A DNA stretch of 32,000 bases, taken from the NCBI GenBank assembly GCA_965219535.1, contig CBDCNV010000002.1:1140001-1172000 (forward strand), read 5' to 3'. Below the pieces are notes generated by a model. The model was not told the DNA's origin, searched no databases, and worked only from the letters and a program-made list of their open reading frames with translations. This document shows, in pieces, positions 3,817-31,673 of the stretch (position 1 is its first letter; each line of letters starts with the position of its first letter). Position numbers and translations under genes: made by a program. The stretch is from Opitutales bacterium (GTDB lineage: Bacteria > Verrucomicrobiota > Verrucomicrobiia > Opitutales > PNEW01).

Positions 3817-4167
3817 ATGAAGATCTACACCTATAAGAATTGTGATACCTGCCGCAAAGCGCTGAAGTGGCTCGATGCTCATGGAATGGAATATGAGCAA
3901 ATAGCCATTCGTGAGTCGCCCCCCACGGTTATAGAGCTCGAATCCATGTTCGCTGCTTATGAAGGGGAAATTCGAAAACTGTTTAATACCTCCGGCCGAG
4001 ATTACCAGGCGCAGAAGTTAAAGGATAGCCTACCTAAAATGAAATTACCCGAAGCCCTCAAGCTTCTCTCAGGGAATGGAAATCTTATTAAAAGACCTTT
4101 TCTCCTGGCTGGAACCACAAATCTTGTTGGTTTCAAGGAAGAGGAATGGAGCGAGAAGCTTAAGTAG
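3817..4167 (+). CDS. ArsC/Spx-family thioredoxin-fold protein (YffB-like)
   Basis: 116 aa. N-terminal MKIYTYKNCDTCRKALKWL and C-terminal NLIKRPFL are typical of the ArsC/Spx/YffB family. Confidence 0.8.
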   Translation: MKIYTYKNCDTCRKALKWLDAHGMEYEQIAIRESPPTVIELESMFAAYEGEIRKLFNTSGRDYQAQKLKDSLPKMKLPEALKLLSGNGNLIKRPFLLAGTTNLVGFKEEEWSEKLK

Positions 4168-4300
4168 AAATCCTGAAAGCCGGAAAACTGGAAAGCCAGT
4201 TCCGAGTTCTCCCGCGACTGCGGATCGGAACGATATTTTCCAATCCGGAATTCCTAAAAATTGGGTTGTGAGAAAGAAGATAATTTATTCCACATAATCG
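4165..4300 (+). repeat. dispersed intergenic repeat family 1, copy A
   Basis: GTAGAAA..GAAAGCCGG..GGAAAGCCAG..TTCCGAGTTC, a hairpin, then GTGAGAAAGAAGATAATTTATTCCACAT. It aligns by eye with 17978-18118. Confidence 0.65.
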
Positions 4301-4309
4301 CGTACACGC

Positions 4310-5149
4310 TTATTCGCATATACGAAAATTTGGTTCAAATTTTCTAACATTTTCCCGGGCGGTTTTTATATAGTCGGGATTGATATCGAATCCGATAAAT
4401 TTTTTTACCCCACATTTTATAGCCCCGAGTGGGGCATGACCAATACCTACGAAGGGGTCCAAGACGACGGTATGTGAATTCACACCGTGCAGATTAATAC
4501 AATTTTCCGCCAATTTTACCGGGAAGGTTGCCGGGTGTGGACGATTTTTGTCCCTGCTTTGAATTGTCTTATACGAGACAAACCAATTATTGCCTCGGCA
4601 TCTCTTGTCTCGCCCGCCCGTGTGACTCCACCGCGCGATATTTGATTTGTCACTGTAGGACACGCCTAGACTGAGACGGTTTACGGGGGTGTTTCCCGTA
4701 TGTGTTAGGTGAAAAACGTATTCGTGGCAGTCAGTGACATAGCGTTTCGAATTGATAGGCTTGAAATGGCCAACCGAAGTTTCCTTGCCATCCGGTGTCT
4801 CCACCGTGATCGATTTGATCCAGTGAAAAGTATTTTGAAGAATAAAAAATTCGCTCATTAAGATGGCAACTTGGTGCGGGAGCATCGGATTAGATGGGCT
4901 GGCACCAATGTTTAGAAAAAAGGATCCACTTTCTTTTAATAGTCGCTTTATCTCACGCGCCCACTCTTTACACCAGCTTAAGTATTGGGGACGGTTGCTC
5001 GAATCTTTATAGTTACCGTACGCAATACCCAGATTGTAGGGCGGTGAAGTGACGACTATATCAATAGTATCGGAATCAATTTTCCGCATACCTTTCAAAC
5101 AGTCCTGTCGTAATAATTTATAGCTGTAGGTCTGCGCTTTAGCTTTCAT
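4310..5149 (-). CDS. site-specific DNA methyltransferase, beta-class N4-cytosine/N6-adenine type
   Basis: Catalytic motif IV VVTSPPYNLG lies near the N-terminus. HPATFPVKL and the AdoMet motif VLDPFVGIG lie near the C-terminus, giving beta-class order. The ORF track starts at TTG 5182, but ATG at 5149 (MKAKAQTY) is the more likely start. Confidence 0.85.
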   Translation of the reverse strand: MKAKAQTYSYKLLRQDCLKGMRKIDSDTIDIVVTSPPYNLGIAYGNYKDSSNRPQYLSWCKEWAREIKRLLKESGSFFLNIGASPSNPMLPHQVAILMSEFFILQNTFHWIKSITVETPDGKETSVGHFKPINSKRYVTDCHEYVFHLTHTGNTPVNRLSLGVSYSDKSNIARWSHTGGRDKRCRGNNWFVSYKTIQSRDKNRPHPATFPVKLAENCINLHGVNSHTVVLDPFVGIGHAPLGAIKCGVKKFIGFDINPDYIKTARENVRKFEPNFRICE

Positions 5150-5530: not shown

Positions 5531-8158
5531 ATGAATATCGATCCCAATAAATTTACTGAAAAATCGCGCGAATCCCTGCAAGAGTCTCAGGACATTGCAC
5601 GCCGTCTGAATCATCAGCAGGTTGATGGCATTCACTTACTCTCAGCTCTTGTTCATCAGGAGCATGGCGCGGTGTCGGCCATATTGGAGAGGATGGAAAT
5701 CACCCCGAGTGCTGTGCAACTGGCGTTGCAACGGGAATTAGAAAAATTACCGAGTGTATCAGGTAGTGTTGATGCATCGCGTGTCTATGTTACACCCTCT
5801 TTTCAAAATACTATTACCAGGGCCGAGGCAGCGGCGGATCGGTTACAGGATGAATTTATCAGCGTTGAGCATCTCCTCCTCCGGCTGATCGAGGATTCTG
5901 ATAACACTGCACTGCAACAGTTTTTTAAGCAGTTTGGTATAGAGTGTAAAAAAGTCCTCGAAGCAATGCAGGATGTCCGAGGGAATCAGCGCGTAACTTC
6001 ACAGAATCCGGAAGCCACCTATCAATCCCTGGAAAAATATGGTCTTGATCTTGTTGAACAAGCCCGGCGGGGTAAACTGGATCCGGTCATTGGGCGCGAT
6101 GCTGAAATTCGCCGAGTCATTCGAATTCTCTCGCGCAAAACAAAAAACAATCCCGTGCTTATTGGCGATCCGGGCGTAGGAAAAACGGCAATCGCTGAAG
6201 GACTTGCCCAGCGTATCGTGCGTGGTGATGTCCCTGAGGGCTTAAAAGACAGAACAGTATTTTCTCTCGATATGGGAGCATTGCTGGCAGGAGCAAAATT
6301 CCGTGGTGAGTTTGAAGAACGCCTGAAAGCAGTACTTCAGGAAATAAAAAACAGTGAGGGTCGAATTCTCCTTTTTATTGATGAACTCCATACCATTGTC
6401 GGTGCGGGTAAAGCAGAAGGTGCGATAGACGCAGGCAATATGTTAAAACCCATGTTGGCCCGCGGTGAACTTCATTGTATCGGTGCGACCACACTCGATG
6501 AATACCGCAAAGAAATCGAAAAAGATGCGGCTCTTGAAAGGCGTTTTCAAACGGTTATGGTTGATCAACCTAACGTCGAAGACACGATATCCATTCTGCG
6601 TGGTATACGCGAACGCTTTGAGTTACATCACGGTGTTCACATTCAGGATAACGCCCTCGTGAACGCTGCGGTCCTCTCTAATCGTTACATCACGGATCGA
6701 TTTCTTCCAGACAAGGCAATTGATTTAGTTGATGAAGCCTGTGCTATGATTCGTACGGAGATCGACAGTATGCCGAGAGAACTGGACGAACTCACTCGAC
6801 GTGTGATGCAGTTGGAGATTGAAGAAGCGGCCTTAAAGAAGGAAAAAGATGATGCCAGTAAACAGCGATTAAATCAGTTGGGTAAAGAAGTGACTGAAAC
6901 TCGCGAGAAAGCTGATGCTTTACGCCGGCAGTGGGAAACCGAAAAGTCTTCCATCGGGGATGTGCAGAAAATTCGCGAAGAAATCGAAAAAACAAAACTG
7001 GAGATGGAACAAGCGGAGCGCGATTACGACCTCAACAAAATGGCTGAATTGCGCCATGGGCGACTACCCGAACTTGAAGAAGAACTAAAGAAGCTGGAAT
7101 CAACAGAGAACAAAAATAATGGGTCACGTCTATTAAAAGAGGAAGTTTCAGCTGAAGAAATTGCTGAGATCGTCTCGCTTTGGTCAGGTGTCCCCGTCAC
7201 ACGATTACTCGAAGGGGAAAGAGAAAAGCTTTTGCGCCTTGACGATGAACTGCACAAGCGCGTCATCGGACAAGATGAACCTGTTGAGCTTGTATCCGAA
7301 GCTATTCTTCGGGCCCGTTCCGGGATAAAAGATCCCAAAAGACCTATTGGATCCTTCCTTTTTCTCGGCCCGACCGGGGTTGGAAAGACCGAGCTGGCTA
7401 AGACGCTTGCCGAATCACTCTTTGACAGTGAAGACAATATCGTGCGTCTCGATATGTCCGAGTATATGGAAAAGCACACGGTATCTCGATTGATCGGTGC
7501 CCCACCAGGTTATATTGGTTTCGAAGAGGGAGGGCAACTCTCGGAAGCCGTTCGACGCAAACCTTACTGTGTCATCCTTTTTGATGAAATAGAAAAAGCG
7601 CATCCTGACGTCTTCAATGTCCTTCTTCAAATCATGGATGATGGGCGTATTACTGACGCACAAGGGCATACCGTGGATTTCAAGAATACTGTCATCATCA
7701 TGACTTCGAACATCGGCAATCGCTATTTACAGGAAGGTGTAACTGGAGATGAAATTCCAGAGTCCGTTCGCGAGTCCGTTTTTACAGAACTGCGTCAAGC
7801 GATGCGGCCAGAATTTCTCAATCGAATTGATGATACCGTTCTCTTCAAGCCACTGACCCTTGTGGAAATTCGCGACATTGTTGATTTGTGCATTGTGGAA
7901 TTAAACAAGCGCATGAAGGATCGTCGTATTGCGATCGAGCTGGACGGAGAAGCTCGCGATTGGTTAGCTGAGCGCGGCTATGACCCCGTTTATGGCGCTC
8001 GCCCGCTGCGTCGATTCCTGCAGAAACGGATCGAAAACAAACTAGCTCGCGCGCTTATAGCTGGCCAGGTGATTGAGGGACAAACGGTCGATTTTATTTT
8101 AGAGGGTGATGAACTCACGATGCTCTTGATACCAGAACCTCAGGAGATTGTTGATTGA
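5531..8158 (+). CDS. clpB: ATP-dependent chaperone/disaggregase ClpB
   Basis: 875 aa. Two AAA+ modules with Walker A GDPGVGKT and GPTGVGKT. Long coiled-coil middle domain and a Clp N-domain repeat. Confidence 0.97.
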
Positions 8159-16939: not shown

Positions 16940-17974
16940 ATGAACATGAATACCTTTACGATTGACGAGATTTGCCAGCGTGTTAACGGCAGACTTGCTG
17001 GCCCCCCAGATCTAATGATTACAGGGGTGGAGCAGATAAACCGTGCAGGACCTTCTCAATTAACTTTTATTGGTCAAAAAAAGTACGCGCAATTCTGGAC
17101 TGACTCGCGTGCCTCAGCCGCGCTTGCCAATGAAAAACTAAATTTAGAGCCGGGTGAGGGCAGGGCCTTGATCCATGTACCCGATACCGATCTTGCTCTG
17201 GCTGTCGTTTTGGAAATGTTTGCACCTGAAATACCTGATTGTGGACAGGGAGTCCATTCCAGCGCAATTATCCATCCTTCAGCCAATTTAGGTGTGGGTG
17301 TAGCAATCGGTCCGGGATGCGTTCTTGGCCCTCACGTGCAGCTTGGTGATAATGTTTCACTTTACGCCAATGTTACCGTCTTTGATCATTCAAGCATAGG
17401 TGAAGGTTCCGTGATCTGGCCGGGTACTGTCATTCGCGAACGCTGTAAAATAGGGGAGAATTGCATCATACATCCTAATGTAACGATTGGAGCAGATGGA
17501 TTCGGTTATCGACCTTCACCCGATGGTATGAGTCTCGTCAAGATACCACAGATCGGTACCGTAAACATTGGTCGTGACGTAGAAATTGGAGCCGGTTCTT
17601 GTATCGATCGAGGTAAGTTCAGTGCGACGACAATTGGAGATGGCACCAAAATTGATAACTTGGTTCAGATTGCTCACAACTGTACTATAGGGCGTGCTTG
17701 TGTGATAGCTGGTTTGGCAGGGATCAGTGGATCGGTAACAATCGGCAATGGTGTCATGATAGGGGGTAATGTCGGGATTGCAGATCATCTTACAATTGGT
17801 GATGGAGCAATTCTTGGAGCCAAAGCAGGCGTTATGCGTGATGTAGATCCGGGTGCCTTTGTGGTCGGTGCCCCTGCTCGCGACACGAAAAAAGCGATGC
17901 GTGAATGGGCTGCTCTTTCAAAGCTACCCGATCTTATAAAGAAGTGGAGGGCGAGAATGAAGAGTGAACAGTGA
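16940..17974 (+). CDS. lpxD: UDP-3-O-(3-hydroxyacyl)glucosamine N-acyltransferase
   Basis: 344 aa. LpxD N-terminal uridine-binding-type region followed by long hexapeptide (left-handed beta-helix) repeats and IGADGFGY. The last codons and the TGA stop lie in a GTGAACA heptamer repeat. Confidence 0.9.
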
Positions 17975-18148
17975 ACAGTAGAAAGCCGGATGGCCAGATA
18001 ACCGGTAGACCGGAGCGCCGGAAAGCCAGAGAGTCAATTCCGAGTTCCGCAGTCGCGGAACGACATCTTTAAAGCCGGAGTGCTGGAGTGAGAAATAGAG
18101 GATAATTTCTTCCGCATTTCCTTTTTGACTTTTTGACCTTTTGACTTT
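17964..18148 (+). repeat. composite repeat: GTGAACA heptamers, family 1 copy B, and TTTTGAC-type octamers
   Basis: GTGAACAGTGAACAGT at 17964-17979. Family 1 copy B at 17978-18118, with perfect hairpin GTTCCGC-AGTC-GCGGAAC at 18044-18061. CTTTTTGA-like x3 at 18121-18148. Confidence 0.7.
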
Positions 18149-22671: not shown

Positions 22672-22864
22672 TAGTAAGGTTCAACGGTTCAGCGGTTCAA
22701 CGGTTGGAGAGGATGATATTTTGAAGTGAACAGCAAGAAGAGGTAGCAGATGGAATTGGGTTGCGGGGTTCAATATTTAATGGCGTGTTAATAATAACTC
22801 TGAACGTTGAACCGTTGAACCCTGAACCCTGAACCCTGAACCCCGAACCCTGAACCTATTCACA
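22672..22864. repeat. imperfect hairpin cassette without a gene, built from the same word set
   Basis: (GGTTCARC)x3 at 22678-22701 is complementary to CTGAACGTTGAACCGTTGAACC at 22800-22822. This is followed by (CCTGAAC)x5 at 22821-22855. The loop holds GTGAACAG (22726-22733), AAGAAGAGGTAG (22735-22746) and GGGTTGCGGGGTTCA (22758-22772). Confidence 0.75.
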
Positions 22865-24000: not shown

Positions 24001-24279
24001 ATGAATAATATGTACGATTTATTAATAATAGCTGTTATCTTAATTATTTGTTTAATCGGATGCGTATTTTGGTTTCTCTATCGAGCCATGAAATCCACTG
24101 CTGATAAGCACCGTCGGGTGGATGATACATTAGATAAATCCATCGAGCAGCAGGAAAGAAAAGATGCGATTTTGGCCAATGATGAATTGCTACAGCAACG
24201 ACACGAAAAGCTGATTAAAAAAATGGAAGATAATTGTGAGCGAGTGGAAAAGCTACTCGACAGATTTGAATCACGTTAA
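24001..24279 (+). CDS. small membrane-anchored coiled-coil protein (hypothetical)
   Basis: 92 aa. One N-terminal TM helix (LLIIAVILIICLIGCVFWFL) then a charged helical tail. Confidence 0.45.
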   Translation: MNNMYDLLIIAVILIICLIGCVFWFLYRAMKSTADKHRRVDDTLDKSIEQQERKDAILANDELLQQRHEKLIKKMEDNCERVEKLLDRFESR

Positions 24280-24307
24280 TGCACTCCTTAATAGGGGAAG
24301 TGAAGCA

Positions 24308-24682
24308 TTAGACTGAAATCCAAATCAATAGAATAGGTATTAGGGCACCCGAGATGAGAGAAATCCAAATAGTCTTAGCCTTTCGTGTAAATCTGAACGC
24401 CATGACAATCCCTAATGAGGCTGTAGCGACGAAGCCCAATGACATTAAAAGTACAAACAATCGAAAGGGAACAGAAGGAGTTCCTGGATTTTCATTCATA
24501 GGCAATCGTTGGTTTTCATGTATCTCAGATAATTTCTTGAGAATGGTTGGTGCCATATAACTGCCATCTTTCTTGCTCTTGTGTAAGCTGAAAGATTGCC
24601 AGGCTCCGGAAACCACGAAAAAAAGGAGAAGCGGGGTAAAAAAACAACCGAGATAAATATGGAATTTTCGAATTAGATTCAT
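24308..24682 (-). CDS. small membrane protein, PepSY-associated-TM-like
   Basis: 124 aa. N-terminal KFHIYLGCFFTPLLLFFVVSGAW resembles PepSY_TM helices. Three or four TM segments. Confidence 0.5.
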   Translation of the reverse strand: MNLIRKFHIYLGCFFTPLLLFFVVSGAWQSFSLHKSKKDGSYMAPTILKKLSEIHENQRLPMNENPGTPSVPFRLFVLLMSLGFVATASLGIVMAFRFTRKAKTIWISLISGALIPILLIWISV

Positions 24683-24807
24683 TACATGCCTCCAGACCTA
24701 ACGTTTAAGTGTATCAATGCACTAATAGGTCTTCATCCTATTAAAGAGCAAATAACCCTCAAGTTATTACTTCACTTGTTGAATTATCCTATCCTTCGAC
24801 TGGGTGG

Positions 24808-25197
24808 ATGTCCTGTTCACCGCAAGTCGTTAATTATGATTCATTGATGGCAAGCCCGCTGATAATATTTCTGATCTCAATGGCCGGTGTCTCAAGTATC
24901 TATGCATATATTTGTGATATTCGTTTGTATCGAAAAGCGAGTAAGCTTAGCAATTGGGTGAAGCAAGAGCATCCAGATCTTTGGGCTGAGTTGAATATAT
25001 TTCTGAGGAATTGGAACGGCGGTCTGTCGGGATTAAAATACCTTCATCGCAGAGGTGTAATCAGTCTTCCTTATTATGATCAGCAATATGAGCAACTTAA
25101 GGTATTAGAGCGTAAAGTTTTTTGGGGAATTGGAATCGGTTCGCTGTGCATTGGTTGGGTGCTGATAGGAGCCATTTTCTGGGGCTGGAAATGGTAG
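24808..25197 (+). CDS. membrane protein (hypothetical)
   Basis: 129 aa with N- and C-terminal TM segments and no recognisable motif. Confidence 0.45.
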   Translation: MSCSPQVVNYDSLMASPLIIFLISMAGVSSIYAYICDIRLYRKASKLSNWVKQEHPDLWAELNIFLRNWNGGLSGLKYLHRRGVISLPYYDQQYEQLKVLERKVFWGIGIGSLCIGWVLIGAIFWGWKW

Positions 25198-25230
25198 AGC
25201 GCGGATGCAGTATAAAAGGTAAAAATTTAC

Positions 25231-25258
25231 TTTAGACTTTTGACCTTCGACCTTAGAC
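25231..25258. repeat. heptamer tandem array (TTTAGAC TTTTGAC CTTCGAC CTTAGAC)
   Basis: Four tandem 7-mers in the convergent gap between 24808..25197 and the BNR gene. The word set matches 18121-18148. Confidence 0.6.
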
Positions 25259-25271
25259 TCCCCTTTGTCCT

Positions 25272-26537
25272 CTAGTTCTCAAACCATTCCACCGGTATGA
25301 TCAGCAGTTTATGATCGGCGAGTGTGAGATGTGGGTAGTCTCCGATCTGCCATTCACGGTAAGAGAGATAAACATTCCGATTATAAATGCGTGCCGACAC
25401 ATAGTCATAAGTTCTCCCGAGCATGGGTTGAATGATCTTTCGAAACTGGAAAGACTTTCCTTCGTCTTTACTCACCGCAAAAGCTAGAGGTGTACGGTCA
25501 CAGTTGCGGTTTCTTTCACCCACCGAATTATTATTGTAGATGACCGCGATATGGCCGGAGTCGGGTAGGCGAAACAGGGTCTGGGGGGATACAGGGGTTT
25601 CTAATTCCACAATGGGAACAGGTTGACTCCAGGTCTGACCGCCGTCTGAGGAAATACTCTTATAAGGATTGCCGAGTTTGGTGCGTATGATCATGAACAC
25701 GCGTCCATCCTTAAGCTCGATTAACCCGGGTTCTTGAAGCGTTAATTTTTTGTATTCCTTGCCGGGAAAATCCTTCTGCAGCAAGGTGCATGATTCTCCC
25801 TGTTCCCAACTGTTTCCCTCATCATCCGAATAATAAGTGAGACAGGATTGCTTCATCCATCTGAATTCCTGGCCCGGATCAAGTGAGACGGCAGCAGGAA
25901 CCAGAATACGACCGGTCGATAACTGAAGGACGCGGGCATTATTGACGACATAAAAATGATTACGATCTGAAATGCGCTCGGCTTTAGTGAATTTTTTCCC
26001 ATCGATGGTAGAGCGAACATAAATGGAGCAGCGCATCTGTCGGTAGTCATCATCACTCCCCGTCTCGACCTCTTCCTTCCCGAGATAGACTAAGAGAACT
26101 TTATCGCTGGACTGCAGCCGGAGCAAACTGGCGTCCATCAGATTTGAATTAGCTCGGTGTTCTGCTTCGGAGAGAGAGGCATAGGTGTCAATCCCTCCCC
26201 AGCTCATGCCTAGATTGTGACTGCGCCGTCCAATGAGGATCGACCTGGAAAGATCACTGCGATTGCTATGGCGTGTCCACACCGCAAGAAGACTGTTATC
26301 AGCCAGTTGAGCGATATCGCCCTCGGAATGGCGCTGGTAAATCTCATCCGACCGTCCAAGAACTATTTCCTTACCCGGAGCAGCTGGCTCACCTTCGTCT
26401 TCGTCATCAGAGCGATCTCTTACATGAATGAGGACAGAATTACGGCTCTTAGCTTCGGTGGTATCAACTAGTCCGGCAACTACGAGAACTAGAATTATTA
26501 TTAGAGCCCAACGAAATAACTTAGTTAATAGATTCAT
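25272..26537 (-). CDS. secreted BNR/Asp-box beta-propeller protein (sialidase/GH33-like)
   Basis: 421 aa. Signal anchor LIIILVLVVAGLV. Asp-box motifs YSDDEGNSW, SSDGGQTW and SKDEGKSF. Confidence 0.8.
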   Translation of the reverse strand: MNLLTKLFRWALIIILVLVVAGLVDTTEAKSRNSVLIHVRDRSDDEDEGEPAAPGKEIVLGRSDEIYQRHSEGDIAQLADNSLLAVWTRHSNRSDLSRSILIGRRSHNLGMSWGGIDTYASLSEAEHRANSNLMDASLLRLQSSDKVLLVYLGKEEVETGSDDDYRQMRCSIYVRSTIDGKKFTKAERISDRNHFYVVNNARVLQLSTGRILVPAAVSLDPGQEFRWMKQSCLTYYSDDEGNSWEQGESCTLLQKDFPGKEYKKLTLQEPGLIELKDGRVFMIIRTKLGNPYKSISSDGGQTWSQPVPIVELETPVSPQTLFRLPDSGHIAVIYNNNSVGERNRNCDRTPLAFAVSKDEGKSFQFRKIIQPMLGRTYDYVSARIYNRNVYLSYREWQIGDYPHLTLADHKLLIIPVEWFEN

Positions 26538-26610
26538 CTTTGGTTCATCTCATTCAACAATGCATGACTGACCTCTGTCAATAAATCCAAATTGGCTTAG
26601 AAATTACCCT

Positions 26611-26722
26611 ATTGTCATTGCGAAGGAGGCATAGCCGACTGCGGCAATCTAGGGGAATGCCGGTCACGTATAGACATCCCCCTGGATCGCCACGGCTGAC
26701 AAGCATCCTCGCGATGACAAAA
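26611..26722. repeat. long imperfect hairpin, repeat family 2 (TTGTCATYGCGARGG termini)
   Basis: ATTGTCATTGCGAAGGAGGCATAGCCGACTGCGG at 26611-26644, against the reverse complement of 26687-26722 (TTTTGTCATCGCGAGGATGCTTGTCAGCCGTGGCG). Confidence 0.65.
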
Positions 26723-26797
26723 TAAATAAATCCACAATCGCAAATCCATATCAAGGGTAAACCCGACATTCCTCAAATCGTTTGGATTACTCTGCAT

Positions 26798-26905
26798 CCT
26801 GAACCCTGAACCCGGAATTCACTTACCGGCTTTTCGGTTCTCTGGAAATCTGACCTTCTCGCCTTTCGGTCTTCTGGACTTCTGTACTTCCGGTTTTCTA
26901 TTCCA
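26798..26905 (-). repeat. family 1 copy C (5' portion, reverse orientation) abutting CCTGAAC heptamers
   Basis: The reverse complement reads TAGAAAACCGGAAG..CAGAAGACCGAAAGGCG..GAAAAGCCGGTAAGTGAATTCCGGGTTCAGGGTTCAGG. This parallels copy B: TAGAAAGCCGGATG..CAGATAACCGGTAGACCGGAGCG..GGAAAGCCAGAGAGTCAATTCCGAGTTC. Confidence 0.55.
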
Positions 26906-26950
26906 AATATCCATTCGACAAAAAGCGAAAATAGATAAACCGTTTAAGCT

Positions 26951-27907
26951 ATGAAAGTTGTATTGAAATTTGATTTAGGTGAAGCCTTTGTAAATGATTT
27001 AAAAGCAACATTTCCGGACATTGATTTTCGGCCGGTCAGTACTCGCGAAGAGGAACTTCAAGAAATCGTCGACGCTGAGATCCAGTTTGGGGAAATCAGT
27101 CGGGAAGCTTTCGAAGTGGCAAAAAAACTGCGCTGGTTTCATTTTATTGGTATGGGTTTCGATGGGTACAAGAATAATTTTCCTGAAATGTTTGATGGAG
27201 AGTTTATCTTTACTCGCGCTCCGGGAACCCACGTCATTCCCATGGCAGAGCATACATTTGCCATGATCCTGGCTTATGCCCATCGCATTCCCGATTTTGT
27301 CGACGAAAAACAAGCGCATCGTTGGATTACAGAAAATTTCATGGATAAAATTATTGAATTAGCCGGTACTACGATGGGAATCATCTCCATGGGTGGAATC
27401 GGTAGGGGCATTGCGCAACGCGCGCAGGGCTTCGATATGGACGTTTACGCTGTCGACAGTCAACCGATGTCGCCACCACCGGGTGTCAACGAAGTGTGGG
27501 GCATGGATCGACTGGATGATCTTCTCGCGCGGTCCGACTGGTTGATTGTCACCACACCTTATACCAAGGAGAGCCATCACTTACTTGACCGACAACGCAT
27601 CGAACGCATGAAGCCCGGCGCTTTTATCGCCATAATGTCGAGAGGAGGGATTGTCGATGAAGAGGCCCTGATTGATGCGCTCCGATCGGGCCACGTAGGG
27701 GGAGCTGGAATTGACGCCTTTGGCCAGGAGCCCCTGCCCGCGGACAGCCCTTTCTGGGATCTACCCAACGTCATAATCACGCCTCATATATCGGCACATT
27801 CTCCCCAACTCTGGCTGCGCCGCGGGCAGATATTTAAAGACAACCTCAAACGCTACCTCGCCGGTGAACCGCTCATGCATATCTGTGATTCAAAAACGGA
27901 GTTTTAG
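26951..27907 (+). CDS. D-isomer-specific 2-hydroxyacid dehydrogenase family protein
   Basis: 318 aa. NAD motif GIISMGGIGRGIAQRA, RGGIVDEEAL, GAGIDAFGQEPLP and catalytic His in ITPHISAHS. Confidence 0.88.
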   Translation: MKVVLKFDLGEAFVNDLKATFPDIDFRPVSTREEELQEIVDAEIQFGEISREAFEVAKKLRWFHFIGMGFDGYKNNFPEMFDGEFIFTRAPGTHVIPMAEHTFAMILAYAHRIPDFVDEKQAHRWITENFMDKIIELAGTTMGIISMGGIGRGIAQRAQGFDMDVYAVDSQPMSPPPGVNEVWGMDRLDDLLARSDWLIVTTPYTKESHHLLDRQRIERMKPGAFIAIMSRGGIVDEEALIDALRSGHVGGAGIDAFGQEPLPADSPFWDLPNVIITPHISAHSPQLWLRRGQIFKDNLKRYLAGEPLMHICDSKTEF

Positions 27908-28042
27908 TAGAGGGGGTAGAAGGTGTCGGGTGTCGGGTGTCGGGAAAGAGGGTTCGGGGTTCAGGGTTCGGGGAAAATGCCGATAGTTAGAAATGAACAG
28001 TGAACAGTAAACAGTAAACAGTGAACAGTAAGAGGGAAGCTG
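27908..28042. repeat. left inverted arm of the four-helix-bundle cassette
   Basis: GAGGGGGTAGAAGG terminus, (GTGTCGG)x3 at 27922-27944, (GGGTTCR)x3 at 27950-27973, (RAACAGT)x5 at 27995-28029. Confidence 0.8.
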
Positions 28043-28477
28043 ATGATGCAGAGAAACCCGCACGCTGCAAATTTCAGGGATCTGATCGTTTATCAGAAAG
28101 CAAGGAATGTTGCTGAGGAAATCTTCATCATCTCAAAACAATTCCCAAAGGAAGAAATCTATTCACTTACTGACCAGGTGCGGAGATCGTCAAGATCGAT
28201 TGGGGCCCAAATAGCGGAAGCATGGGGGAAACGACGTTACGAGAAACATTTTGTGAGTAAACTTACAGATGCAGATGCTGAACAATATGAAACACAGCAT
28301 TGGATTGAGACTGCTGTAGATAGCGGGTATTTAAGTAATGATAATTCGGACAAGCTATGTGAAAAGCTTTCCAAAATCGGACGTATGTTGAATAGTATGA
28401 TAGACAAGTCCCCATCATTTTGTGAGAAATCTCCATTTATTATCAGAGAAGATGCCGCCGATTATTTCACCCTATAG
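28043..28477 (+). CDS. four-helix-bundle protein (23S rRNA intervening-sequence protein / Avd-like family)
   Basis: 144 aa. FRDLIVYQKARNVAEEIFIISKQFPKEEIYSLTDQVRRSSRSIGAQIAEAWG is the hallmark N-terminal pattern of the PF05635/TIGR02436 family. The gene is flanked by long inverted repeat arms. Confidence 0.9.
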   Translation: MMQRNPHAANFRDLIVYQKARNVAEEIFIISKQFPKEEIYSLTDQVRRSSRSIGAQIAEAWGKRRYEKHFVSKLTDADAEQYETQHWIETAVDSGYLSNDNSDKLCEKLSKIGRMLNSMIDKSPSFCEKSPFIIREDAADYFTL

Positions 28478-28596
28478 AGCGTCAACCATTTTCCCACTGT
28501 TCACTGTTTACCGTTCACTGTTCACTATCTTCTGAACCCTGTACCGAGGGCGTAGCCCGACATCTTCCACCCCCGAACCCTTCTTCCTACCCCTCC
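28478..28596. repeat. right inverted arm of the four-helix-bundle cassette
   Basis: (ACTGTTC-like)x4 at 28496-28526, CTGAACCCT at 28532-28540, CCCGACAT at 28556-28563, CCCCCGAACCC at 28570-28580, TTCTTCCTACCCCTCC terminus at 28581-28596. These are the reverse complements of the left-arm words in mirrored order. Confidence 0.8.
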
Positions 28597-31500
28597 GCTT
28601 TCTTCAGGATAGCTGGATCCCACTTGTATTCTTTAAATCTTACTCGGAAGAAAAGGGAGTAAAGGACGGGGCAGAGTGCGAGGGTGAGGACAGTGGAAAA
28701 TGCGAGGCCGAATATGATAACGTTAGCCAACGGTCGCCACATTTCACCTCCCTGAAGAGAGAGTGGAATCAGTCCAATTACTGTGGTTGTCGCGGTTGTA
28801 AGGATTGGGCGCATTCTTGATAGAGCGGTCACCATTATCGCATTGGCGTCATCGATTCCCTTTGCTCGCAACGCTTCGATGCTGTCGATTAACATGATCG
28901 CATTATTAACGATAATCCCCATGAGGCTAAGGGCACCGAGCAAGGCCATGAAACCAAATGCGGCATCCGTTATGAGCAATCCCAAGGCGATGCCGAAGAT
29001 CGCTGGCACGATGGTAATTCCTATAATAATGGGTCGGGTTACCGAATTGAACATGGAGACAAGGGTTAGAAAAAGTAGACCCATCGCCAGGGGAAAACTG
29101 GCAGCGATAGAGGCTTGAGCGATGGCACTTTTTTCCTGTTCTCCGCCGAATTCATAAAAGAAACCGGTTGGCCACTCGGGTGTCTCCATCATCAAATCGA
29201 GCTTGGGTTGAATCATGGCTAAAGAGTCGGTAGCGTAATAACCCGGACGGAGATAAGCTTTTATCGTCATCGTTCGCTTGCCGTTTTCTCTTCGTATATT
29301 TGAGGGTTGCCAGGTTAATTCCGGTTTACCCACTTGCAGTAAGGGGACGTTTCGATTACTGGCCGTCGAATAAACATTCAAACTTTCAATTCTCCCTAGA
29401 TCTCGCCGATAGGCCTCTTCCGATCGCATCACGATCGGTATGATTTCATCACCTTCCCGAAAATTGCTTACACTTAATCCTGAAATCTGGGTTTGCAGAG
29501 AGAGGGCTACGTCTTCACTTGTTAATCCGGCATATTTAACTTTGTCCTGGTTAATATTTACATTGAGTTTCTTCGTCCACTCGCCCCAGTCATCGAAAAT
29601 ATTTATCACACCGGGTGTTTCTCTGAGTATTTCCGCAATCCGATCACGAGTGCGATAAAGGTCTGGAATATCATCTCCCGTCAATCGTATCTGAATGGGT
29701 GCGCCCACCGGAGGTCCCATTTCCAATTTAGTAAGCGTTACCCGGCTATCCGGCATGTGCTCATTGGCAAATTCACTGCCTTTTTTTAATATCGTATCGA
29801 CACTTGGAATATCGACTGTTTCCACGAGCATGAAAGCATAGGCCATATTGCTCTGCTCAATATTTTGTGAGAGATTCCACCGGGGGCCTCCGTTGCCGAC
29901 AAAACTGGTTACCTGAAAGACTTCTTCCTGTGCGAGAAAATATTCCTCAAGGGTTGCTGCTTTCTCTCCCGTTGTTCTTATATCAGAACCGTACGGTGTC
30001 CATAAGTCGATGAGAATAATCTCCCGGTCGTTGGGTGGAAAGAATACCTTTTTAACATACCCGAAGGAGTAGACACCGACAAAAGTAGCAATAATGGTGA
30101 TAAGGATAACGACCAATCGATTCCTAAGTGCCCAATGGAGAATGATGCGATACAGCGAGTAGAGCTTTCCATCATACGTTTCCTTTTTGACTTGGACTTT
30201 TATGAAATAATAGCAGAGAAGCGGGACGATGGTCATGGAAAGAATCCACGAAGAGACCAGGGTAATGGCGATTACCTGAAAGAGAGATAAACAGAATTCC
30301 CCCACACTCGATTTTGCCATCGCGATAGGCAGGAAGGCGAAAATTGTTGTCATCGATGCGGCCAGAAGTGGCTTCCATAATTCGGAAACTGCCCCCGTCA
30401 TGGCCTTAAGACGGTCATCTCCGCGCGCGAGCCGTACAAGAATATTTTCGCTTACGACAACCCCGTTATCCACCATAATGCCGAGCGCGATTATGAGAGA
30501 AGCAATCGATATTTGCTGCAGAATGATATTAAAGATGGGCATCGCGACAAAGCACATCAGGATAGCGAAAGGAATGAGTGATGACGCGATGAGACCCGTT
30601 CGAATTCCCGTTGCAGCAAGCATAACGACAAAGACAAAGAAAAAGGCCTGGCCGAGATTACCCATAAAATCACTGATCTTTCGCTGGACGAATTTTGGTT
30701 CCCACATGATTTCCTGAAGGTCCAGCCCGATGGGCAATTCATCTTTGATTCGATCGACAGCAATTTTAACTCGCTCCCCAACTTCGATAATGTTTCCTCC
30801 CACCGCCATATTTATAGCTAGAACAATAGTCGGGTTCTGGTTATTGGTAACAAGGCTCGTCGGTGGATCGACAAAGTCCCGTTTGATCACGGTAATATCC
30901 TCTAATGAAATGGCTTCTTCATTGCCCGGTGCACGGAACGAGGTCTTGCGTATATCTTCTACCGTTTTGTATTCACCACTGGATTCGACAAGAATGCGTT
31001 CAGGTCCGACCAGGGCATCACCACTCGGTTGCACAATATTCTGTGAGTCTATAGCAGCCGCGATGACGAAAGGAGACACGCCACGCTCAGCGAGGAGGGC
31101 ATTGGAAAATTCAACAAATATTCGTTCATCCTGTATCCCGTATTTATCTACTTTCGCGACACCTTTGACCCTGAGCAGTTGATTTCTAATGTCGTCCGCG
31201 TAGTCTTTCATTTCTCGATAGGTGAATCCATCACTGTGAAGAGCCACTACCATCCCAAACACATCACCGAAATCATCGTTTATTAAAGGTGCCTGTACCC
31301 CCGCAGATAACGTCGGTGTTACTTCATCGACTTTATTGCGCATCTTGTCCCAATTTTTGCGAACTTCTGACTTAGGGGTGCTCTCATAAAGATCAACCGT
31401 GATAATCGAAGTGCCGGCTAGTGACTGGGATTTTACCTTATCCACAGCGGCAATTTCCCTGATTTTTTCTTCCAGTTTATCGGTGACAAGCTCTTCAACT

Positions 31501-31673
31501 TTTTGCGGCGTGGCACCGGGAAATTGAGTAATAATTACCGCGGATCTGATCGTAAAATCCGGATTTTCACCTTTCGGGAGATTAAAATAGGAAAGCACTC
31601 CGGCAAAAACCAGGAGCACCACACCAACGATAGTCGTGGCATTATTGCGTAAGCACCATTCAGCAATATTCAT
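28587..31673 (-). CDS. RND-family efflux transporter permease (AcrB/HAE-type)
   Basis: 1028 aa, 12-TM architecture with two large periplasmic loops and typical AcrB-family segments. The ATG overlaps the adaptor gene's TGA by 1 nt (TGATG). Confidence 0.93.
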   Translation of the reverse strand: MNIAEWCLRNNATTIVGVVLLVFAGVLSYFNLPKGENPDFTIRSAVIITQFPGATPQKVEELVTDKLEEKIREIAAVDKVKSQSLAGTSIITVDLYESTPKSEVRKNWDKMRNKVDEVTPTLSAGVQAPLINDDFGDVFGMVVALHSDGFTYREMKDYADDIRNQLLRVKGVAKVDKYGIQDERIFVEFSNALLAERGVSPFVIAAAIDSQNIVQPSGDALVGPERILVESSGEYKTVEDIRKTSFRAPGNEEAISLEDITVIKRDFVDPPTSLVTNNQNPTIVLAINMAVGGNIIEVGERVKIAVDRIKDELPIGLDLQEIMWEPKFVQRKISDFMGNLGQAFFFVFVVMLAATGIRTGLIASSLIPFAILMCFVAMPIFNIILQQISIASLIIALGIMVDNGVVVSENILVRLARGDDRLKAMTGAVSELWKPLLAASMTTIFAFLPIAMAKSSVGEFCLSLFQVIAITLVSSWILSMTIVPLLCYYFIKVQVKKETYDGKLYSLYRIILHWALRNRLVVILITIIATFVGVYSFGYVKKVFFPPNDREIILIDLWTPYGSDIRTTGEKAATLEEYFLAQEEVFQVTSFVGNGGPRWNLSQNIEQSNMAYAFMLVETVDIPSVDTILKKGSEFANEHMPDSRVTLTKLEMGPPVGAPIQIRLTGDDIPDLYRTRDRIAEILRETPGVINIFDDWGEWTKKLNVNINQDKVKYAGLTSEDVALSLQTQISGLSVSNFREGDEIIPIVMRSEEAYRRDLGRIESLNVYSTASNRNVPLLQVGKPELTWQPSNIRRENGKRTMTIKAYLRPGYYATDSLAMIQPKLDLMMETPEWPTGFFYEFGGEQEKSAIAQASIAASFPLAMGLLFLTLVSMFNSVTRPIIIGITIVPAIFGIALGLLITDAAFGFMALLGALSLMGIIVNNAIMLIDSIEALRAKGIDDANAIMVTALSRMRPILTTATTTVIGLIPLSLQGGEMWRPLANVIIFGLAFSTVLTLALCPVLYSLFFRVRFKEYKWDPAILKKAEG

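Follow-up and report, generated by a model that had tools for sequence, protein, structure and literature searches.

ORF-bearing rRNA intervening sequences (IVSs) have been known since 1993, and two kinds of bacterial heptamer repeats, the STRR sequences (1990) and the GGGAATC arrays (2015), have no accepted function. In Coxiella, the IVS contains two to three tandem GACAGAT heptamers, with a copy number that differs between strains; RNase III excises the IVS, cutting at the first heptamer, and the IVS protein is apparently not made (PMC4990558). IVSs put into E. coli rRNA caused no phenotype, and a Xanthomonas protein of the same family has been published as a homopentamer (both cited in PMC4990558). 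Heptamer repeats are over-represented in bacteria, with 186 arrays and about 70 inverted pairs per genome in Xanthomonas (PMC4692102). These orphan heptamers lie mostly between co-oriented genes, often as convergent inverted pairs, and are transcribed; the regions that bear them show raised stability, and the studies that described them connect the repeats to no gene (Rehm et al. 2015, PMC4692102). For the STRR hairpins between hupS and hupL, transcript stabilisation or translational coupling has been suggested (PMC2670836). We compared these systems with a unit at positions 27908-28596 of the window, that is, the whole 32,000-nucleotide stretch of Opitutales DNA under analysis, and consider it on balance probable that this unit is a copy of widespread promoterless passenger cassettes that are homologous, both in their protein and in their architecture, to ORF-bearing 23S rRNA IVSs.

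The entire gap 27908-28596, between a dehydrogenase gene and a convergent efflux pump gene, is one symmetric unit, with arms that are collinear inverted copies around a 144-aa gene. All features that the first-pass annotation had described (the dehydrogenase TAG, the RND stop, the 435-nt ORF and the arrays) were found where it had placed them, and the unit and its host genes comprise the following:

26951-27907, plus strand: D-2-hydroxyacid dehydrogenase gene, the upstream host, with its TAG stop adjoining the left arm (PF02826, E = 9.4 × 10−54)
27908-27921, unstranded: left terminal segment GAGGGGGTAGAAGG, with its partner at 28583-28596 (I18)
27922-27944, unstranded: outer left array (GTGTCGG)x3.3 (Tandem Repeats Finder: GGTGTCG, 3.3 copies, 100% match)
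27950-27973, unstranded: middle left array (GGGTTCR)x3.4 (Tandem Repeats Finder: GGGTTCG, 3.4 copies)
27994-28029, unstranded: inner left array (RAACAGT)x5, the same as (GTRAACA)n (Tandem Repeats Finder: TGAACAG, 5.1 copies)
28030-28042, plus strand: spacer AAGAGGGAAGCTG with a Shine-Dalgarno-like AGAGGGA directly before the start codon (read from the sequence)
28043-28477, plus strand: cassette gene, encoding a four-helix-bundle protein (S23p / 23S_rRNA_IVP / TIGR02436) of 144 aa (PF05635, 1.1 × 10−32)
28495-28526, unstranded: inner right array (ACTGTTY)x4.6, the inner left array reverse-complemented (Tandem Repeats Finder: CACTGTT; I1)
28527-28582, unstranded: right outer module CTATCTTCTGAACCCTGTACCGAGGGCGTAGCCCGACATCTTCCACCCCCGAACCC (alignments with the homologous loci L001 and L002)
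28583-28596, unstranded: right terminal segment CTTCCTACCCCTCC (ORF translation and I18)
28587-31673, minus strand: RND efflux pump gene, the convergent host, 1028 aa, with the C-terminus ...KKAEG-stop (ORF list)

Smith-Waterman alignment of 27908-28042 to the reverse complement of 28478-28596 gave a score of 52, far above the 18.3 ± 2.9 of dinucleotide shuffles (z = 11.6). End-free global alignment of the same two arms scored 82, compared to 27.9 ± 6.1 in shuffles (z = 8.9), which indicates that the arms are collinear along their entire length. In an RNAfold prediction for the cassette, the arms were paired end to end (−230.6 kcal/mol, z = −6.8), and 0 of 20 shuffles were equally stable. The alignments and the fold thus bear out the original proposal that the arms can pair into a long imperfect stem around the ORF; the claim that both arms contain the same words in the same order stands as to collinearity but is only approximate as to order, with GGGTTCG preceding ATGTCGG in the right arm. 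The inner arrays contain the inverted pair I1 (27999-28029 with 28496-28526; 31 nt, 94% complementary), and further pairs join 27912-27930 to 28556-28574 (19 nt, 89%), 27943-27959 to 28571-28587 (17 nt, 88%) and, at the termini, 27910-27922 to 28583-28595 (I18; 13 nt, 77%). The partner of the outer left array is a single ATGTCGGG word at 28556-28574 (I7, I11); the middle left array, whose GGGTTCR is a word type found in the arms of another protein subfamily (type B, below), pairs with 28532-28545 and 28571-28581 (I12-I14).

The right outer module is the single-copy counterpart of the words amplified in the left arm. The outer arrays of the left arm, (GTGTCGG)x3 and (GGGTTCR)x3, are local amplifications of words that are single in a ~40-nt module, GGTGGAAGATGTCGRRCTACGCYCTCGGTACAGGGTTCRG, which is intact in the right arm of the window unit, at the orthologous locus L001 (left arm) and at the paralogue L002 (both arms); in place of the outer left array, L001 has two units and then the unique module. 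The spacer before the start codon is conserved at L001 and L002, and a third locus (L003) has a related form of it. The left terminal segment is also present in L001, and the matching right-hand terminus is kept at the site in two sister genomes (L095 and L097); thus, the termini behave as site sequence and not as cassette sequence. The RND pump gene ends in the right terminal segment, which holds its stop codon (28587-28589, minus strand) and its final A-E-G codons; the end of the gene accordingly falls within the right arm, and the ORF translation agrees with the earlier statement that the right terminal repeat encodes A-E-G-stop. The orthologues of the pump in L095 and in a further sister genome (L099) were called PF00873 ACR_tran.

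The membership of the cassette protein in PF05635/TIGR02436, asserted from the sequence alone, was confirmed by profile searches (112.9 bits against a cut-off of 33.8 for PF05635, and 105.6 against a cut-off of 24, E = 1.5 × 10−30, for TIGR02436), and the protein matched the PDB entry 2RLD (8.8 × 10−8). The public gene call starts at 28046 and gives 143 aa. In the AF2 model (pLDDT 86.5), helices span residues 15-31, 43-62, 67-93 and 99-121, and Foldseek comparison of this model gave target-normalised TM scores of 0.90 to 2GSC, 0.88 to the Avd protein 4DWL and 0.86 to 2RLD. The PDB entries 2GSC and 2RLD contain five chains each, and pentameric barrels are common to Avd and two crystallised S23p proteins. 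The cassette gene is under purifying selection (dN/dS = 0.12-0.32). PADLOC defence models gave no match; an IMG/VR scan for close relatives of the cassette protein found none, so that there is no evidence of a phage vector. The exact protein is encoded in two public contigs, both identical to the window across 27801-28700, with no variation in array copy number; the window itself belongs to contig ctg834844 of ENA ERZ25067264.

The window unit shares with the ORF-bearing IVSs of Leptospira, Coxiella, Brucella and Azospirillum the protein family, an ORF in sense, a stable stem of complementary arms, heptamers beside the ORF and the lack of an own promoter. Insertion in rRNA was not found: the unit lies between protein-coding genes, whereas IVSs are located in helix 9, 25 or 45 of 23S rRNA, and an Rfam search of 27500-29000 (E <= 1) returned nothing. 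The window arms (about 120-135 nt) are longer than IVS arms and layered from three word types, and purifying selection acts on the window protein, in contrast to the decaying Coxiella IVS ORF. In the 23S rRNA IVS of Azospirillum lipoferum (L090; LSU rRNA match of 2138 bits), the ORF is in sense to the 23S rRNA and the arms (z = 14.9) are (CRGARGA)n heptamer arrays; because a real IVS thus has heptamer-array arms, the link between the window unit and IVSs is now direct. Taken together, the arms, the fold, the other copies of the gene and the polymorphism of the site support the initial view of an IVS-style hairpin-plus-ORF cassette outside rRNA that is probably selfish or mobile.

Among loci of type A, the protein subfamily to which the window gene belongs, 63 of 74 have complementary flanks, defined as an alignment score of the upstream against the reverse-complemented downstream flank above the 95th percentile of random-position controls; the sample spans six phyla (Verrucomicrobiota, Lentisphaerota, Chloroflexota, Desulfobacterota, Bacteroidota and Planctomycetota). 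Inverted arms also enclose the gene in 47 of the 69 type-B loci, in about 12 of 14 retrieved plasmid hits, which comprise 13 from cyanobacterial plasmids and the Azospirillum IVS, and in Xanthomonas copies, so that other copies of the gene, too, lie between such arms. Tandem runs of 7 nt were detected in 131 of 148 type-A flanks (89%) vs. 6% of control windows drawn from the remainder of the same loci, a ~15-fold enrichment, and the flanks show an autocorrelation peak at lag 7.

The repeat word depends on the protein subfamily. CAGT arrays are present in 48 of 74 type-A loci and in 0 of 65 type-B loci, and, conversely, GGTTCA arrays are present in 48 of 65 type-B loci and in 0 of 74 type-A loci; no cross-occurrence was observed in the 139 loci, and both types are present at the dehydrogenase/RND site in sister genomes. 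RAACAGT (equivalent to GTRAWCR) is the cognate word of the type-A subfamily, including the window gene. The words of STRR1-3 reported by Mazel et al. in 1990 are said to be CCCCAGT, TTGGTCA and CAACAGT, with a CAGT core shared with the window word. Likening the heptamer arrays to STRR seems apt; the cyanobacterial copies compared here are plasmid copies, with words that differ from those of the classical STRR1-3. Like the orphan heptamers (STRR, and GGGAATC and GGGGA(C/T)T of Xanthomonas and Nostoc), the window arrays are intergenic, consist of 7-nt units and vary in copy number. Other words include GCAGRGGA (Nostocales), CRGARGA (Azospirillum) and GGGAATC (Xanthomonas), and the Xanthomonas four-helix-bundle (4HB) gene, located between accB and accC, is flanked by exactly the GGGAATC orphan arrays described in 2015. 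The orientation of the word relative to the element centre is fixed (48 to 5 in type A, and 48 to 4 in type B); a simple stem does not explain this fixed orientation or the subfamily specificity. The own downstream arm was the best partner in 10 of 74 loci and among the top three in 20; locus-specific co-variation is modest because the arms share family-wide words. Homologous loci that share arrays number in the hundreds, their distribution is patchy and multi-copy, and protein identity is 60-70% across phyla. The window unit is one of hundreds of passenger cassettes behind host genes in many phyla.

Arrays that lack a gene also occur, and three are present in the window:

17958-17979, unstranded: solitary (TGAACAG)x3 array across the LpxD stop codon (Tandem Repeats Finder, word positions)
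22678-22856, unstranded: gene-less hairpin consisting of (GGTTCAAC)x3, a 95-nt loop and (GTTGAACC)x2(CTGAACC)x5 (Tandem Repeats Finder and sequence)
26798-26817, unstranded: solitary (CCTGAAC)x2.9 array, 5' of the dehydrogenase gene (Tandem Repeats Finder, sequence)

The hairpin is located between response-regulator and amidohydrolase genes (RNA fold −60.7 kcal/mol, z = −3.1), and no type-B gene was found in the 32,000-nt window. At the place equivalent to 26798-26817, L001 contains a dispersed copy of the right-arm module (L001 2740-2802, blastn). Dispersed gene-less inverted pairs or solitary arrays were also identified in other loci (L010, L026, L033 and L039), and gene-less hairpins were found between co-oriented genes. 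Related genomes differ in what the orthologous dehydrogenase/RND gap contains: a gene of the other 4HB subfamily, an inverted remnant in decay, arms without a gene, or a nearly empty spacer, with neighbouring genes that are 78-93% identical. The paralogues L001 and L002 differ by a dS of 0.012. No target-site duplications or sharp element ends were found, the unit common to L001 and L002 fading out inside the arms, and the element contains no gene for a transposase or other catalytic protein; the combination of a transposase, or ends derived from one, with a target-site duplication that marks transposons and MITEs was not found at the window unit.

The left arm, which separates the ORF from the dehydrogenase gene, showed no sigma-70-like promoter, and 26500-29000 showed no intrinsic terminator; the dehydrogenase gene, which is on the same strand as the cassette gene, presumably supplies the read-through transcription. 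Among type-A loci, 66 of 73 (90%) have a co-oriented upstream neighbour, compared to a baseline of 65% (p = 4 × 10−7), with a median gap of 80 nt; among type-B loci, 56 of 65 do (86%), which equals the local baseline of 36 of 42 (86%) and is no significant excess. Copies lie within operons, between trpF and trpB, cas6 and cas4, cmr2 and cmr3, and accB and accC; those at trpF/trpB recur across Desulfobacterota and those at accB/accC across Xanthomonas species. In 53 aligned arm pairs, G.U and A.C mismatches on the sense strand were equally frequent (76 vs. 85, p = 0.53). Because G.U is not in excess over A.C, there is no sign at the level of base pairs of strand-specific selection on an RNA stem, and the arms could be complementary for no other reason than that each is an array of one word.

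We read the unit as a selfish IVS-type cassette that would depend on read-through for its transcription and on an RNase III-type stem to close it off, and whose ring protein probably reads its own word. The cassette, having no promoter of its own, would be transcribed from the co-oriented dehydrogenase gene; in the read-through transcript, the arms would pair into a long stem from which the cassette is looped out, and RNase III, by analogy with the experimentally shown rRNA IVSs, would cut this stem, so that cassette and host RNA come apart and the host transcript suffers less harm. The ring-shaped protein is a putative binder of its own heptamer array, at roughly one word per subunit, which would be the reason that each subfamily keeps its own word, and this binding may control processing or translation, or aid copying. 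The arrays may further provide the homology for recombination by which cassettes would be duplicated, inverted, swapped and deleted; the gene-less hairpins and solitary arrays dispersed in intergenic DNA would be what remains. Nucleic-acid binding in this protein family is, to our knowledge, known for Avd of diversity-generating retroelements (DGRs) only. In the DGR ribonucleoprotein, the Avd pentamer touches RNA directly (bioRxiv 10.1101/2023.10.23.563531).

A different reading, possible although doubtful, assigns the function of the arms to DNA: they would be multi-site protein-binding ends, or hairpins of single-strand DNA, and the ring protein would promote copying with host enzymes through annealing or recombination, the RNA stem being a by-product. 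Repeated transposase sites are present at the ends of Mu, Tn7 and IS607. This reading would account for a word orientation fixed to the element centre, which a plain stem does not need, for the specific word of each subfamily and for arms without a G.U bias, and it agrees with cassettes that are flipped, swapped and deleted at one site, with almost identical paralogues inside one genome and with dispersed gene-less inverted pairs and solitary arrays, including those of Xanthomonas (PMC4692102). However, no catalytic activity is known for the family, which lacks nuclease and recombinase motifs; neither target-site duplications nor defined ends were found; the strong bias to a position behind a co-oriented gene suggests that the cassettes depend on being transcribed; and the sole experimental data on such arms concern RNase III cleavage at the RNA level (PMC4990558).

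Long residence at conserved operon sites (accB/accC in Xanthomonas and trpF/trpB in Desulfobacterota), purifying selection on the protein and gene-less hairpins between co-oriented genes could also reflect operon punctuation of benefit to the host, in which hairpins would govern how the mRNA of neighbouring genes is processed, how stable it is or how its translation is coupled, and the protein would serve these hairpins genome-wide as their dedicated RNA chaperone or regulator, as might be expected from the suggestions made for the STRR of hupS/hupL (PMC2670836) and from the stability of Xanthomonas repeat regions (PMC4692102). We consider such punctuation unlikely, given the rapid turnover, subfamily replacement and decay at the site despite the conservation of the neighbouring genes, the patchy, multi-copy distribution of a protein that is 60-70% identical across phyla, and the lack of a phenotype of IVSs in E. 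coli rRNA (cited in PMC4990558).

That the cassette gene derives from a DGR, as an orphan or degenerate avd without its reverse transcriptase, is very improbable: the fold similarity to 4DWL and the matches of the protein to the bAvd Pfam profile (7.8 × 10−14) and to the PHROG 'Avd protein of DGR' (1.8 × 10−15, the only match in PHROGs) are outweighed by a score of 44.5 for the Avd equivalog NF033474, below its cut-off of 80, whereas the TIGR02436 score far exceeds its own, by adjacent genes that encode a dehydrogenase and an RND pump and not a reverse transcriptase, and by hundreds of homologous loci with arrays and not the DGR layout, and we rejected this reading. Even less credible is a coincidence in which polymerase slippage makes heptamer arrays general in intergenic DNA and the gene lies among them by chance, since, despite the gene-less arrays of the window and the over-representation of heptamer repeats in bacteria (PMC4692102), it is contradicted by the enrichment of arrays in the flanks, the strict word orientation, the perfect separation of words by subfamily even in one clade and at one site, and the same design within a 23S rRNA gene.

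The preferred reading, a selfish IVS-type cassette, has parallels in two other systems. As in REP/REPIN-RAYT systems, one gene lies between inverted short repeats, each protein subfamily has its own type of repeat, and the repeats are dispersed in intergenic DNA as gene-less hairpins; RAYTs, however, are relatives of HUH/Y1 transposases with a catalytic motif, whereas the four-helix-bundle protein has none, and REP repeats are unique palindromes of ~20-35 nt, whereas those of the window are 7-nt tandem arrays. With integron cassettes, the unit shares a promoterless ORF, an imperfect inverted repeat, a co-oriented position behind a host promoter and exchangeability at one site, but it has no integrase, attI or attC, its arrays are on both sides, and its cargo is always of one family. 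In the full-text literature searched, with most subscription journals outside its scope, the family is not linked to flanking heptamer arrays beyond the note on Coxiella. Tentatively, and at a level of confidence well below that of the reading of the window unit, we suggest that S23p/TIGR02436 proteins may be specific readers of 7-nt arrays, with each subfamily and its word self-propagating like RAYT/REPIN and seeding gene-less arrays; rRNA IVSs would then be copies that landed in rRNA hairpins, the STRR, GGGAATC and Opitutales arrays would be footprints, and the Avd of DGRs would represent one branch of this nucleic-acid-binding ring that a reverse transcriptase has recruited.

The locus and the comparative data tie ORF-bearing IVSs, heptamer repeats and this protein family together by a rule that can be tested, in which each protein subfamily has a single repeat word, set in inverted arrays around the gene. 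Subfamily-specific words may explain orphan heptamer repeats in bacterial genomes. Heptamer-armed cassettes also explain two practical nuisances: cassette genes are located on short, broken contigs, and large screens make them look 'CRISPR-associated' because some copies are carried within cas operons. If the stem truly insulates host transcripts, these cassettes would be a natural design for harmless gene insertion into operons or rRNA.

The gap between the 2-hydroxyacid dehydrogenase gene and the convergent RND pump gene, both of which end in TAG, holds a single ORF, around which Tandem Repeats Finder places four heptamer arrays:

26951-27907, plus strand, 2-hydroxyacid dehydrogenase ORF (PF02826, E = 9e-54)
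27922-27944, array (GGTGTCG)x3.3
27950-27973, array (GGGTTCG)x3.4
27994-28029, array (TGAACAG)x5.1
28043-28477, plus strand, cassette ORF, 144 aa (PF05635, 23S_rRNA_IVP, 1.1e-32)
28495-28526, array (CACTGTT)x4.6
28587-31673, minus strand, convergent RND pump ORF

The inverted pairs of this cassette (27908-28596) were nested, from an innermost pair of 31 nt (94% complementarity) to a terminal pair of 13 nt (77%). Aligned locally, the left arm and the reverse-complemented right arm scored 52, where dinucleotide shuffles reached 18.3 ± 2.9 (z = 11.6), and end-free global alignment (z = 8.9) indicates that the arms are collinear along their full length. RNAfold paired the arms end to end around the ORF (−230.6 kcal/mol, z = −6.8), and the right terminus contained the final codons of the RND pump (A-E-G-stop). 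These results bear out the first-pass annotation, which had described the gap as one symmetric unit with arms able to pair around the ORF and with the pump's last codons in its right terminal repeat. The left arm contained no sigma-70-like promoter, nor did an intrinsic terminator follow the dehydrogenase gene.

The encoded four-helix-bundle (4HB) protein matched TIGR02436 (1.5e-30) and, more weakly, the bAvd model (7.8e-14). Its AlphaFold model, built from an input alignment of 30 sequences, comprised four helices and a disordered C-terminal tail (pLDDT 86.5), and in a Foldseek search of the PDB resembled XCC0516 (2GSC, TM 0.90), the Avd protein of diversity-generating retroelements (DGRs; 4DWL, 0.88) and BT_0352 (2RLD, 0.86). 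DGR identity was rejected because the Avd equivalog model scored 44.5, under its cut-off of 80, and there was no reverse transcriptase near the window 4HB gene. The dN/dS values against orthologues and paralogues (0.12-0.32) indicate that selection acts on the protein, not on the RNA alone. A further distant family member (hmmsearch E = 7e-12) lies in the orthologous locus L001 (minus strand, 7116-7469; Opitutales MAG OY829953.1), 3 kb from the type-A copy, type A being the subfamily of the window protein.

The architecture is general in type A, as demonstrated by the best 80 of 308 relatives found on scanning one genome for each GTDB species. These proteins were 55-95% identical despite their spread over Verrucomicrobiota, Lentisphaerota, Chloroflexota, Desulfobacterota, Bacteroidota and Planctomycetota. 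We compared the 200 nt upstream of each gene to the reverse complement of the 200 nt downstream, taking as threshold the 95th percentile of controls placed at random positions within those loci. Complementary flanks exceeded it in 63 of the 74 loci having both flanks (median scores of 40 within a locus, 23 across loci and 17 at random), so that most other type-A copies of the gene do sit between inverted arms. Runs of at least three 7-nt units occurred in 131 of 148 flanks vs. 6% of control windows, and flank self-identity was maximal at lag 7 (0.46). Arms contained a median of 6 units (maximum 25); 28 nt separated the last upstream unit from the start codon, and 11 nt lay between the stop and the first downstream unit. 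The words were GTGAACA, GTGATCA, GTAATCA, GTAAACA and similar (consensus GTRAWCR = NNNCAGT), sense upstream and antisense downstream in 48 loci and the opposite in 5. Because reverse-complementing an inverted pair gives back the same pair, this fixed orientation concerns the word relative to the element's centre, not the orientation of the gene. In a protein search, close homologues were mostly on contigs shorter than 2 kb, consistent with repeat arms and multiple copies fragmenting short-read assemblies.

Type-A cassettes lie downstream of genes: the upstream neighbour was co-oriented in 66 of 73 loci, vs. 65% for the remaining neighbouring ORF pairs of these loci (p = 4e-7), and the median distance from its end to the start codon (80 nt) was essentially the arm length. 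Flanking genes were arranged ++ in 42 loci, +- in 15, -+ in 3 and -- in 3. For type B, a second PF05635 subfamily, upstream co-orientation (86%) equalled the local baseline. Annotated operon-internal copies occurred between cas6 and cas4, cmr2 and cmr3, accB and accC, and trpF and trpB. The last pair, apparently trpF and trpB from flanking translations read by eye, holds a cassette in six Desulfobacterota genomes (L011, L015, L019, L023, L057 and L065, about 3900-4500 in each) with varying words (AATCAGT, AACCAGT, AATAAGT), reflecting either in-place word drift or repeated re-occupation of the site.

Tracing the dehydrogenase through relatives revealed that its downstream site turns over.

State of the gap downstream of the dehydrogenase (identities relative to the window dehydrogenase)
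Window and L001: type A, plus strand; L001 syntenic with window 24082-28541, 95% nt identity over gene and cassette
L095/L096 and L097/L098 (93% and 88%): type B, plus strand
L099 (82%): gene-less arms (GTGTCGG)x4, (GTGAACA)x3 ... (ACTGTTC)x4
L101 (82%): 140-nt spacer, vestiges only
L103, L105 (78%): left arm retained, ~70-nt loop, (GAACCCT)-type right arm, gene absent

In L099, a 21-codon 5' type-A remnant with an in-frame stop adjoins the right arm on the minus strand (tblastn 76%, E = 2e-8); here the cassette was inverted and has decayed. Synteny of L001 with the window stops within the right arm, at window 28541. L001 and its paralogue L002, from one genome, are 99% identical (dS 0.012), and their similarity fades within the arms, with no sharp ends and no target duplications. 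Of the signs of mobility that the first-pass annotation had proposed seeking, presence/absence polymorphism was thus found at the orthologous gap, and target-site duplications were not found between L001 and L002. Gene-less forms also occur elsewhere: window 22678-22856 is a hairpin of type-B words (−60.7 kcal/mol, z = −3.1), solitary heptamer arrays are present in the window besides it, and comparable empty hairpins were found in L010, L026, L033 and L039. Behind a more distant dehydrogenase (L106 3552-4650, 60% identical) lies an IS630-like transposase pair (HTH and DDE_3) and no cassette.

In L095-L098, which retain the order dehydrogenase, gap, RND pump, the gap gene encodes a 146-aa PF05635 protein that shares only 20% identity with the window protein (blastp E = 3e-6), between arms of (CGGTTCA)n and (TGAACCG)n. 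Eighty type-B relatives from JGI metagenomes likewise had arms of GGTTCA-type units of 7-8 nt. CAGT arrays occurred in 48 of 74 type-A loci and in no type-B locus, whereas GGTTCA arrays occurred in 48 of 65 type-B loci and in no type-A locus, a clean split indicating that the word follows the protein subfamily, not the host. The window arms are layered, with a type-A inner word and a type-B-like middle (GGGTTCR)x3, and the left arm preceding the type-B gene of L097 still holds a type-A piece, GGGTTCAGGGTTCAGGAAAAATGACGATAGTTATGAGTGAACAGTGAACTGTAAACAGT; the arms thus keep a trace of the types that occupied one site in turn. Many type-B loci (L113, L136, L138, L147-L150) have a complete small hairpin, (GGTTCA)n then (TGAACC)n, upstream of the gene, which with the downstream array makes three arrays per cassette.

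Other repeats were seen in the window. Two convergent ORFs (24808-25197 and 25272-26537) are separated by a 75-nt spacer that contains an (ACTTTAG/ACCTTCG)-type heptamer array (25229-25259). The end of the LpxD gene falls within a (TGAACAG)x3 array (region 17958-18148), after which come an array of a second word, (AGAAAGCCGGATGGCCAGATAACCGGTAGACCGGAGCGCCGGAAAGCCAG), and, at 18121-18148, (CTTTTTGA)x3.5. Words akin to these recur at 26860-26890 and past the right arm of L002. This genome thus has several word families beyond the two linked to 4HB genes. A MITE-like dispersed element of ~140 nt (26596-26760; terminal inverted repeats TTGTCATTGCGAAGGAGGCAT.../...ATCCTCGCGATGACAA) has copies in the related Opitutales genome, in L001 (2511-2621, reversed) and L002 (2691-2828).

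A tblastn search of 72,556 plasmids returned 39 records, nearly all cyanobacterial, and about 12 of the 14 loci read had inverted arrays: (GCAGRGGA)n in Nostoc and Tolypothrix, (GGGAGAGT)n in Oscillatoria, (CAGGTGA)n in Anabaena sp. 90 and (CAGGAGT)n in N. punctiforme. The match on Azospirillum lipoferum AZO_p2 (L090), which has no annotated feature, lies within a 23S rRNA gene (Rfam LSU_rRNA_bacteria, 2138 bits across the locus), sense to the rRNA and in place of the helix-45 hairpin, and is flanked by (CRGARGA)n arrays (z = 14.9). In the Coxiella 23S rRNA intervening sequence (IVS), two or three tandem GACAGAT units, their number differing among strains, precede the S23p start codon, and the first of them is where RNase III cleaves (PMC4990558). 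Protein and arm design are thus common to the window element and real IVSs, which supports the earlier reading of an IVS-style hairpin-plus-ORF cassette outside rRNA. The element is homologous to the IVS; however, because it is not located in rRNA, the defining feature of an IVS, it falls outside the strict class.

Two copies lie in cas operons: Anabaena sp. 90 (type I-D, L091 1183-1551, cas6/cas4) and Picosynechococcus (type III-B, L093 1189-1545, cas10/cmr2 and cmr3). Such copies probably explain, by hitch-hiking and not function, why a large screen (PMC10910872) listed '23S rRNA IVP' as CRISPR-associated. On two Nostocales plasmids (L082 1501-3009; L083 1501-3014), the 4HB gene lies directly 5' of a co-oriented tyrosine recombinase gene, a possible hint that some lineages have a recombinase partner.

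Xanthomonas genomes contain 186 GGGAATC heptamer arrays each, including about 70 convergent inverted pairs, mostly between co-oriented genes, transcribed and without assigned function; the same study describes Nostoc GGGGA(C/T)T arrays and links no gene to either (Rehm et al. 2015, PMC4692102). The Xanthomonas family member (XCC0516/2GSC group) lies between accB and accC, co-oriented with both, and has GGGAATCGGGAGTGGAGAATGGGGAATCGG on its upstream side and, downstream, GGGAATAGGGAGTCGAGAATGGGGAGTGGG in reverse complement (z = 11-13); this flanking repeat is the published orphan GGGAATC repeat. The cassettes (L192 1424-1881; L193 1424-1872) split the essential accB-accC operon, so the host tolerates a cassette within a highly expressed essential operon. 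The right array reaches the accC start codon, which the called 4HB gene of L192 overlaps by 11 nt. Cyanobacterial short tandemly repeated repetitive sequences (STRRs) reportedly occur inside the RNase P RNA gene, going by the title of a 1997 paper by Vioque. STRR hairpins also occupy the hupS-hupL intergenic region (PMC2670836), and both placements fit the behaviour of the heptamer cassettes.

By analogy, the window element would work like an IVS. Read-through from the upstream gene would transcribe the cassette, and the stem would form in the transcript and be cut by RNase III, as in the Coxiella, Salmonella and Leptospira IVSs. The protein, as a ring, may bind its cognate array, as suggested by the word-subfamily rule, by the way the Avd pentamer directly contacts RNA within the DGR ribonucleoprotein and by what we regard as a rough geometric fit of five subunits to five 7-nt words. 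The main rival explanation, which is compatible with the RNA-stem model, is that the arrays act as DNA, either as protein-binding ends or as single-strand hairpins; it accounts better than a pure RNA-stem model does for the word's fixed orientation and for the lack of G.U bias (76 vs. 85). Recombination between arrays would most simply explain how cassettes are copied, flipped and exchanged; no dedicated enzyme is evident.

The cassette exposes a wider rule, of which we found no statement in the accessible literature: a single four-helix-bundle subfamily goes with a single heptamer word, set in inverted arrays and in dispersed gene-less copies. Through this rule, what a very common uncharacterised protein family does, and what orphan heptamer repeats do, can be tested directly.
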